From an uncultured Ignavibacteriales bacterium (lineage in GTDB: Bacteria > Zixibacteria > MSB-5A5 > GN15 > JAAZOE01), in contig CAZSYD010000023.1 in assembly GCA_964611355.1 (NCBI GenBank), positions 1 to 35,785 of the forward strand: a DNA stretch of 35,785 bases, written 5' to 3'. The notes below the pieces were generated by a model. It was given only the letters and a program-made list of their open reading frames with translations, was not told where the DNA came from and searched no databases. Made by a program: the position numbers and the translations under genes. Shown one piece after another: positions 2,254 through 4,652 of this stretch (the first letter of the stretch is position 1; the number at the start of each line of letters is the position of its first letter).

Positions 2254-2317
2254 CCGAATTCTCCGCAAAACCGACAATGGGACGATGAATCACCTAAAAG
2301 CAATCCGAGTTGTTATC

Positions 2318-2354
2318 AAAAAGTGAGCCCCTATCTCTGAACCGACAGGGGCCC
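2318..2354 (-). terminator. Rho-independent terminator of the candidate sRNA
   Basis: GGGCCCCUGUC-8 nt-GAUAGGGGCUC (11 bp, two G-U pairs) followed by ACUUUUU. Confidence 0.65.
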
Positions 2355-2419
2355 TCCTCTCCTTTTGTCTGTCGTAAACAACATCCCGCTCCCAGCGGAA
2401 TAACGCTTATAACAGACAT
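2318..2419 (-). ncRNA. Candidate ~100-nt small RNA: 5' long hairpin, purine-rich linker, intrinsic terminator
   Basis: Hairpin 2418-2366, linker AAAGGAGAGGA, terminator stem 2354-2325 followed by ACUUUUU. The sigma54-like promoter predicts +1 at 2419. Confidence 0.6.
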
Positions 2420-2430
2420 ATATCATATAC

Positions 2431-2445
2431 ACAAAGACCGTGCCG
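2431..2445 (-). promoter_or_regulatory. Sigma54-like -24/-12 promoter
   Basis: CGGCACG-GTCT-TTGT against consensus TGGCACG-N4-TTGC. Spacing is exact; the -12 element reads GT rather than GC. Confidence 0.5.
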
Positions 2446-2525
2446 CAAACGTATTAAAATTCTATAAAATATTCCGTTGCCGGTCACATGGATACGAACT
2501 TTGCATAAATCGATATCTTTCGCAT

Positions 2526-2592
2526 TCGCAATATATGCGATATCATATCTTTATTGATGTGCAAAGAGTAATCAATATCGCAGGAATTGCGA
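2526..2592. promoter_or_regulatory. Two TCGCA-N5-TGCGA palindromes (possible enhancer-binding-protein sites)
   Basis: TCGCA-atata-TGCGA at 2526-2540 and TCGCA-ggaat-TGCGA at 2578-2592, 52 bp apart. Confidence 0.45.
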
Positions 2593-2625
2593 AAAAAAGG
2601 CCTTCCTTTTTGCAAGAAAGGCCTT
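2592..2625 (-). terminator. Rho-independent terminator of 2670..3488
   Basis: AAGGCCUUUCUU-GCAAA-AAGGAAGGCCUU followed by a U-run. Confidence 0.85.
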
Positions 2626-2669
2626 CCTTAGCATAGGGATTTTGCCGCTTTACACCGCCGTAAACCTCG

Positions 2670-3488
2670 TCATTTCAGCAGCATCATTTTCCTGGTTCGC
2701 TCAAAATCATCCGCTTTGAGCCGGTAAAAATAGACGCCGCTGGCTACCAATTCTCCTAATCTGTTCTGGCCATCCCAGATAACTGTATGCGTACCGGCTT
2801 CCATATAATCGCTAACCAGATCTCTGACGTTCTGGCCCAGTACATTGTAAACGGAAAGCGTCACATAGCCCGGCTCCGGAAGCGAATAACTGATGCTGGT
2901 TGTCGGGTTGAACGGATTGGGCGAATTCTGGCGCAGGCCGTACACGGTCGGCAGCGCCTCGTCGCCAAGCCTGAAAAAGGTGCCTTCCACTTCCGGATGG
3001 ATGGTTCCCGCCTCAATTCTGCCGTTGGACTCTTCTTCATAGTAATAAGTCAGCGAATGATTCGGCAAGTCCATCTCAATCGGCGAGATTTCCAGTTCCG
3101 TAGTTCCCGGTTCCAGTTTGAAGTACATTTTGGCGATGGTTCCGGAGCCGGCCGACAGATCGGGAATCTCCTCCGACGGACCTATAGTCATCATACCTAT
3201 CAGTGTAAGCTGTTGATCATTGTAAATAGTGGCTATCAGGAATTCGAAGCCTTTTACCCGATCGGTAAACTCCACCTTCTCCAGGACAGCGCCTTCGGAA
3301 AATCCCAAAGGTATGTCCAGAGCGTTCAGATTCTTCGTGTTGACGACATCAAGAAGCACAACTATTTCGTCCGATGAAACGGTTTCCGAGGCCCGGGTTA
3401 TGACGAGTCGATCCGCCTGAGCAGCCAACGCCATGGCCGGAATCAGAAGCACAACCAGGCTTACTGCGATGATCGCGCTTTGCTTCAT
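2670..3488 (-). CDS. Secreted protein with a cohesin-like beta-sandwich and a C-terminal FlgD-Ig/T9SS-type sorting domain (paralogue 1)
   Basis: Signal peptide ending ALA-AQ; cohesin-like core (LDIPLGF...GSGTIAKMYF); CTD QNSPNPFNPTT...WDG...ASGVYFYRL...KMMLLK; SD GAGGGGG. Confidence 0.8.
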   Translation of the reverse strand: MKQSAIIAVSLVVLLIPAMALAAQADRLVITRASETVSSDEIVVLLDVVNTKNLNALDIPLGFSEGAVLEKVEFTDRVKGFEFLIATIYNDQQLTLIGMMTIGPSEEIPDLSAGSGTIAKMYFKLEPGTTELEISPIEMDLPNHSLTYYYEEESNGRIEAGTIHPEVEGTFFRLGDEALPTVYGLRQNSPNPFNPTTSISYSLPEPGYVTLSVYNVLGQNVRDLVSDYMEAGTHTVIWDGQNRLGELVASGVYFYRLKADDFERTRKMMLLK

Positions 3489-3836: not shown

Positions 3837-4652
3837 TCATTTAAGAAGCAGCATCTTTTTGGTTTCCGAAAAGCTATTGGCCTCGATGCGGTAGAAATAA
3901 ATACCGCTTGCAACGGAAACTCCGGAGTTATCGCGGCCGTCCCAGACAACGTCATATGCACCGGCTTCGGCATATTCGTCAACCAGGCCGCACACATCCT
4001 GGCCGAGAATATTGAACACGGTCAGCCTGACCTGACCCGCTTCGGGAATAGCATAGCTTATTCGGGTGGTCGGGTTGAATGGATTGGGAAAGTTCTGGTT
4101 GAGAGCATAAACATCCGGCACGGCGCCGCCCGGCGGGAGCGAATACCCGACCGTCTCTACCTTTGGTTGAATCGTCTTCACCTCGGGATAGCCGTTGGAA
4201 TAGTCATTGTAATAATAAGTGAGCGAATGGCCGGGATCGGACAGCTCAATCGGGCTAATCTCAACCATGTCCGTGCCCGGGTCCAGCTTGAAATACATGT
4301 TGGCAATGGTCACGGAGCCGGGAGATAAATCAGGCTTGTCTTTGTTTCCCATGGTAATCAGGCCAATGAGAACCTGTTGCTTATCGTTATCGATGGTTGC
4401 GATCTGGAAATCGAACTTTTTGACCAGATCGGTGAATTCCACCTTTTCAAGGACGGCTCCCTCGGAAAATCCCAATGGAATATCCAGGGCCACCAGATCT
4501 TTGGTGTTGCTTACTTCCAGCGGCACGACAATCACATCCGTTGTGGTTGCCTGCGGCCTGGACATTACGAATTTGTCGGCGTCAACAGCCATAACAATAA
4601 CCGGCGCGGCTAAAAGCGCCAGGACGACTGAGACCAAAACACTTCGTTTCAT
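3837..4652 (-). CDS. Secreted protein with a cohesin-like domain and FlgD-Ig/T9SS-type CTD (paralogue 2)
   Basis: Collinear with 2670..3488, sharing ALDIPLGFSEGAVLEKVEFTD, HSLTYYY and PNPFNPTT; signal peptide; SD GGAGGGGG. Confidence 0.8.
   Translation of the reverse strand: MKRSVLVSVVLALLAAPVIVMAVDADKFVMSRPQATTTDVIVVPLEVSNTKDLVALDIPLGFSEGAVLEKVEFTDLVKKFDFQIATIDNDKQQVLIGLITMGNKDKPDLSPGSVTIANMYFKLDPGTDMVEISPIELSDPGHSLTYYYNDYSNGYPEVKTIQPKVETVGYSLPPGGAVPDVYALNQNFPNPFNPTTRISYAIPEAGQVRLTVFNILGQDVCGLVDEYAEAGAYDVVWDGRDNSGVSVASGIYFYRIEANSFSETKKMLLLK

Follow-up and report, generated by a model that had tools for sequence, protein, structure and literature searches.

The stretch of DNA analysed here (hereafter the window) is 35,785 nucleotides long and belongs to a 2.57-Mb MAG from the Zixibacteria that is 96% complete. 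Two of its genes converge on the locus of interest: a ThiI-like PP-loop/NFACT-R_2 gene on the plus strand (1243-2253), an order-wide syntenic partner of the locus, and a minus-strand gene, syntenic in relatives, for a secreted protein with a FlgD_ig/T9SS-type C-terminal domain (2670-3488). The latter, referred to below as the upstream gene, has an intrinsic terminator of its own, as an earlier note on this DNA had proposed (2592-2628, minus strand; -24.5 kcal/mol, z -4.3). It forms, with 3837-4652 on the same strand, a pair of tandem paralogues 5' of the locus, both encoding proteins with this C-terminal domain. Between the convergent genes lies a predicted sRNA of ~100 nt (2318-2419, minus strand). 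It comprises hairpin 1 (2366-2418, minus strand; 53 nt), the purine linker AAAAGGAGAGGAG with the single-stranded and invariant purine tract GGAGAGGAG (2354-2362, minus strand), and hairpin 2, an 11-bp terminator (2325-2354, minus strand), followed by a U-run that reaches 2318. A sigma-54-like -24/-12 box, cGGCACGgtctTTGT (cGGCACG-gtct-TTGT, 2445-2431, minus strand), predicts a +1 at 2419, and two predicted activator sites, TCGCA-N5-TGCGA palindromes without assigned strand, stand farther upstream, the proximal one at 2526-2540 (centre about -114) and the distal one at 2578-2592 (centre about -166). All these elements, initially read from the letters alone, were found again in this layout on the minus strand when the sequence was re-inspected.

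The 106 nt of 2314-2419 (minus strand) fold with -54.4 kcal/mol (z -8.13), and none of 200 shuffled sequences folded equally well. BLASTN within the same family gave matches limited to the linker and hairpin 2 in 12 of 13 genomes; the sequence 5' of each match had an identical layout at every locus. A covariance model (CM) built from 13 sequences found exactly one copy per genome in all 14 genomes of the family, and a single weak, unconvincing match among the 137 genomes of the remaining order. A CM match in genome G060 was rejected, as it was a terminator behind a T9SS-type gene, without the purine tract. The exact motif turned up in 11 species genomes when the whole collection was searched, and at 8 metagenome loci, all of which shared the architecture.

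In the family alignment, 96% of the cells assigned to pairs were paired, a value reached by none of 500 shuffles and falling to 35-42% in slid controls. The sequence of hairpin 1 is variable and its pairing covaries, 13 of the 28 pairs scored showing changes on both sides. The family shows no variation in the stem of hairpin 2; GGAGAGGAGGGCCCCUGUC and GAURGGGGCUC are unchanged or almost so, and the intervening loop is variable. The conservation on which the earlier note had made its proposal depend was thus found, together with covariation. Seven of the 13 aligned copies lack the U-run after hairpin 2, so that the 3' end of the sRNA is uncertain. We also considered that the signals might be due to chance or to a small protein gene, since a 41-aa ORF (2419-2294) has its ATG exactly at the predicted +1 in the source genome. 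Yet this ATG is present in only 8 of 13 copies, and homologues carry in-frame stops and frame shifts, while conservation and covariation exclude chance; we regard this explanation as extremely improbable.

The alignment also indicated which strand is transcribed. Read as minus-strand RNA, 93.5% of the cells of hairpin 1 and 100% of those of hairpin 2 can pair, against 74% and 80%, respectively, on the other strand. There are 73 G·U cells and the helices are viable only as minus-strand RNA, which fixes the strand of the RNA as minus. This bears on the possibility that the conserved 3' module is part of the convergent ThiI/NFACT-R gene, either as a bidirectional terminator or 3'-end element, or because the sRNA is cis-antisense to the 3' end of its mRNA. 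The gene pair is indeed syntenic in the family and in 11 of 20 genomes of families f3 and f4, in many copies the hairpin directly adjoins the stop codon of the convergent gene, and the genome holds no perfect complement of the sRNA other than the antisense strand. However, hairpin 2 owes its stability on the minus strand alone to G·U pairs, cis-antisense action does not need an invariant sequence, and the promoter, the upstream activator sites (UAS) and hairpin 1 all serve the minus-strand RNA; we consider either form of this reading quite unlikely.

The window contains three sigma-54-like boxes, where 0.74 were expected, but 8 of 100 shuffles also reach three, so this number is not beyond chance; support for the box comes from its conservation rather than from window statistics. 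In the form GGCAY-N4-TTTGN, it is retained in 12 of the 14 family copies. In the sigma-54 promoter previously proposed, the GG at -24 and the spacing are canonical; the -12 element is TTGT rather than TTGC here, with GT or GA instead of GC. Twenty-four intergenic sigma-54-like boxes of the host genome follow GGCAY-N4-TTTG[C/A/T], so that TTTGT corresponds to local usage. The two copies without a box, L033 and L037, both from genus g2, have retained the palindromes. As they have no sigma-54 box, their transcription must work differently. A TTGCAC-N16/17-TATATT-like sequence stands in its place, and a promoter swap may have taken place in this genus.

Two perfect TCGCA-N5-TGCGA sites occur in the window, where 0.07 were expected and none of 100 shuffles reached two. 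Both were retained in all copies examined, and in the 11 aligned copies that have the box their centres invariably fall at -164 to -168 and -112 to -116. The locus thus carries conserved inverted repeats in the range typical of sites for enhancer-binding proteins (EBPs), about 80-200 bp upstream, and both the existence and the position of the two palindromes, as first described, proved right. The host genome encodes one rpoN, about 18 strong EBPs and one csrA, the three kinds of gene for which a search had been advised.

A search of the sRNA against Rfam 15 gave no family at the gathering threshold and nothing meaningful at E < 10, in agreement with the initial impression of an unrecognised family. 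Conservation, covariation, the minus-strand G·U pairs, the constant UAS geometry, the presence of rpoN and ~18 EBPs and the negative Rfam search together give good support to the central proposal of the earlier note, an unannotated, activator-controlled sigma-54 sRNA. Judged from sequence, the locus is a real, conserved gene for a non-coding RNA of ~100 nt with a predicted sigma-54 promoter and two predicted activator sites. It is a new RNA family within a known kind, the EBP/sigma-54-controlled sRNAs. No description of such an RNA was found in the available portions of the literature on Zixibacteria small RNA and on sigma-54 sRNAs. We know of no regulatory RNA reported so far from Zixibacteria, an uncultured phylum of the FCB group.

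Only four perfect palindromes occur in the 2.57-Mb genome: the two of the window, one at a second sRNA (sRNA2) and one at an EBP operon. The third, on contig C34, stands upstream of a box, GGCATacatTTTGT, and of a second ~100-nt RNA (fold z -4.6). This sRNA2 (G000:C34 about 1901-1810, minus strand; locus L066) has the form AUGGCGGUGAAGGGUA...AGGUGGGGAU...AAGGAG-hairpin, recognisable across the order, and had no match in Rfam. It is unrelated in sequence to the window sRNA and more conserved (97-99% identity over about 80 nt between genera); in 11 genomes its promoter and UAS design matches that of the window sRNA. Nineteen additional perfect palindromes were examined, and a sigma-54 box was in range at only one of them.

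A search with the module as a pattern (CGCA-N5-TGCG, 75-105 nt, GGCAY-N5-TTG) gave matches in 144 of the 151 genomes of the order, about two per genome, and a control pattern almost never matched. Thirty of these loci were inspected: 16 were sRNA2 homologues, 12 lay ahead of a 62-78-aa protein with two TM segments and 2 preceded longer RNAs. A ~70-80-nt leader separates the module from the ORF at the two-TM-protein loci of other families (L119, L122, L126, L129, L130, L132, L136, L139, L143). A tblastn search of the own genome for this protein was negative, which counts for little with a protein this short. The two longer RNAs sit between orthologues of the window's flanking genes, the upstream gene and the ThiI/NFACT-R gene, a pair that is syntenic within the family. 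Likewise, in 11 of 20 f3/f4 genomes, a palindrome and a box precede an RNA of 140-200 nt that extends into the stop codon of the convergent gene, ThiI/NFACT-R. At this depth, the stem of the terminator shows covariation and a purine tract is kept, e.g. AAGGAGAGAAGGG. A purine tract and a covarying stem in the same syntenic slot indicate that the window RNA is, as far as such comparisons tell, a shortened, family-level version of an order-wide sRNA.

We looked at what the fourth palindrome precedes. It stands ahead of a small ORF with a signal peptide, and the next gene encodes a 978-aa TPR-GAF-AAA+-HTH_8 EBP (G000:C11:55325-58261), the two forming an operon (G000:C11:55325-58800, locus L067). 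The arrangement of palindrome, small ORF and EBP recurs with EBPs that are 60-64% identical; judged by coordinates, 9 of the 14 family genomes have the palindrome upstream of the EBP operon. In 11 of 12 f3/f4 genomes, one CGCA-N5-TGCG was found 520-640 bp upstream of the EBP, against 0.016 expected, and in 12 of 12 the small ORF beside the EBP encodes an (E/D)HPW(D/E) motif. All 151 genomes of the order encode the TPR-GAF EBP itself. In the L067 operon, the conserved CGCA-N5-TGCG site stands directly upstream of a sigma-70-like promoter. The EBP presumably binds the palindrome and hence would regulate its own operon. On the basis of this putative autoregulation, the 978-aa EBP is the best candidate for the activator of both sRNAs, which throughout this order of uncultured Zixibacteria are apparently controlled by a single sensor-activator protein.

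Our preferred reading, which we consider probable, is that of a trans-acting sRNA controlled by sigma-54 and an EBP through the two palindromes, with the TPR-GAF EBP as the most likely activator and the purine tract and hairpin 2 as the effector. We directly observed the conservation, structure, strand, promoter/UAS architecture and presence of the module at three loci, and we infer the identity of the activator and the role of the effector module. The EBP would occupy both TCGCA-N5-TGCGA sites, which are about five helical turns apart, and sigma-54 RNA polymerase would start the sRNA at 2419 only upon activation by the palindrome-bound protein. The same EBP would drive the sibling sRNA on C34 as well. 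Hairpin 1 would serve as a structural or stability module, and the invariant GGAGAGGAG tract would form the effector module together with hairpin 2.

As to how this effector might act, our leading guess, a tentative one, is that the SD-like purine tract base-pairs, independently of Hfq, with CU-rich RNA partners. Neither Hfq nor ProQ was found in the host genome, which is 96% complete; as an Hfq-dependent sRNA the RNA would also be atypical with respect to the U-run, missing from more than half of the aligned copies. The SD-like linker may be a pairing seed, as the earlier note suggested, but the host genome provided no convincing complementary target: trans-target scans hit nothing beyond the antisense locus and sequences antisense to the ribosome-binding sites of other genes. 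A duplex of the sRNA with the leader of the EBP operon was no better than with shuffled sequence, and simple seed pairing leaves the invariant stem of hairpin 2 unexplained.

CsrA titration ranks second as an effector mechanism, and we consider it rather unlikely. In this scheme, CsrA would be titrated by GGA motifs situated in the linker and in the hairpin 1 loops, and the RNA would be a decoy or, in the term of the earlier note, a sponge. CsrA is the sole global RNA-binding regulator detected, there are about four GGA per RNA, the family set has 39 of its 52 GGA unpaired where the baseline is 35%, and some distant homologues present GGA in small loops (e.g. CUC-GGAAAC-GAG). Yet GGA was not enriched over dinucleotide shuffles in any of three sets (z 0.9, -0.1 and -0.2), and in the two sets other than the family one it showed no preference for unpaired positions (19/43 and 25/84). 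The phyletic pattern of csrA is uninformative, the gene being found in the host and in 145 of 151 genomes of the order. Moreover, CsrA binding does not account for the invariant 11-bp stem, and the host csrA adjoins flagellar genes (flgI-flgJ-flgN-flgK-csrA-flagellin-fliW). The FliW protein antagonises this type of CsrA in Bacillus and Campylobacter (PMC11934962). Apart from the presence of csrA, the sponge suggestion thus found no support. The flagellar cluster (G000:C9, locus L068 598-7617) has the gene order of the Geobacter csrA operon.

Returning to the sigma-54/EBP-controlled, trans-acting sRNA that we favour, one of its closest parallels is the Qrr/LuxO system of Vibrio, where an EBP, palindromic upstream sites and sigma-54 drive sibling sRNAs, and the direct regulon consists mostly of sRNAs. 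Unlike Qrr, the window sRNA is accompanied by no detectable Hfq in its host and has no sequence or Rfam similarity to Qrr; the two Zixibacteria sRNAs are unrelated to each other in sequence, and the candidate EBP, unlike LuxO, is not a response regulator but a protein of the TPR-GAF type. CrcZ/CrcY with CbrB and GlmY/GlmZ with GlrR are likewise sigma-54/EBP-dependent sRNAs, some of them protein decoys; they share the control predicted for the window sRNA but differ in motifs, phylum and activator type. CsrB/RsmY/RsmZ resemble it as purine-rich RNAs with GGA motifs beside a terminator. Their transcription starts at sigma-70 promoters controlled by GacA/UvrY and, in contrast with the window sRNA and its FliW-type csrA, they carry many loop GGA motifs.

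A wider and more speculative proposal, which we think unlikely to hold, is this: an order-wide Zixibacteria circuit, possibly peptide-sensing, LuxO/Qrr-like, Hfq-free and independently evolved. A cytoplasmic TPR-GAF activator, co-transcribed with a small secreted protein whose (E/D)HPW(D/E) motif comes right after the signal peptide, would autoregulate via CGCA-N5-TGCG, and its output would be almost only riboregulators, namely the two sibling sRNAs, plus the tiny two-TM protein in some families. Under our preferred reading, the candidate activator, the DNA site predicted for it and its two or three output sRNAs make a compact, testable regulon. The design in which an EBP and sigma-54 control sRNAs would then reach well beyond Proteobacteria, and the alignments obtained from the locus are adequate to seed new RNA families. 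At about position 62 of contig C62 of the host genome, where the contig edge cuts off the upstream sequence, AAAAAGGAGAGGAG is followed by a small hairpin and resembles the 3' module of the sRNA.
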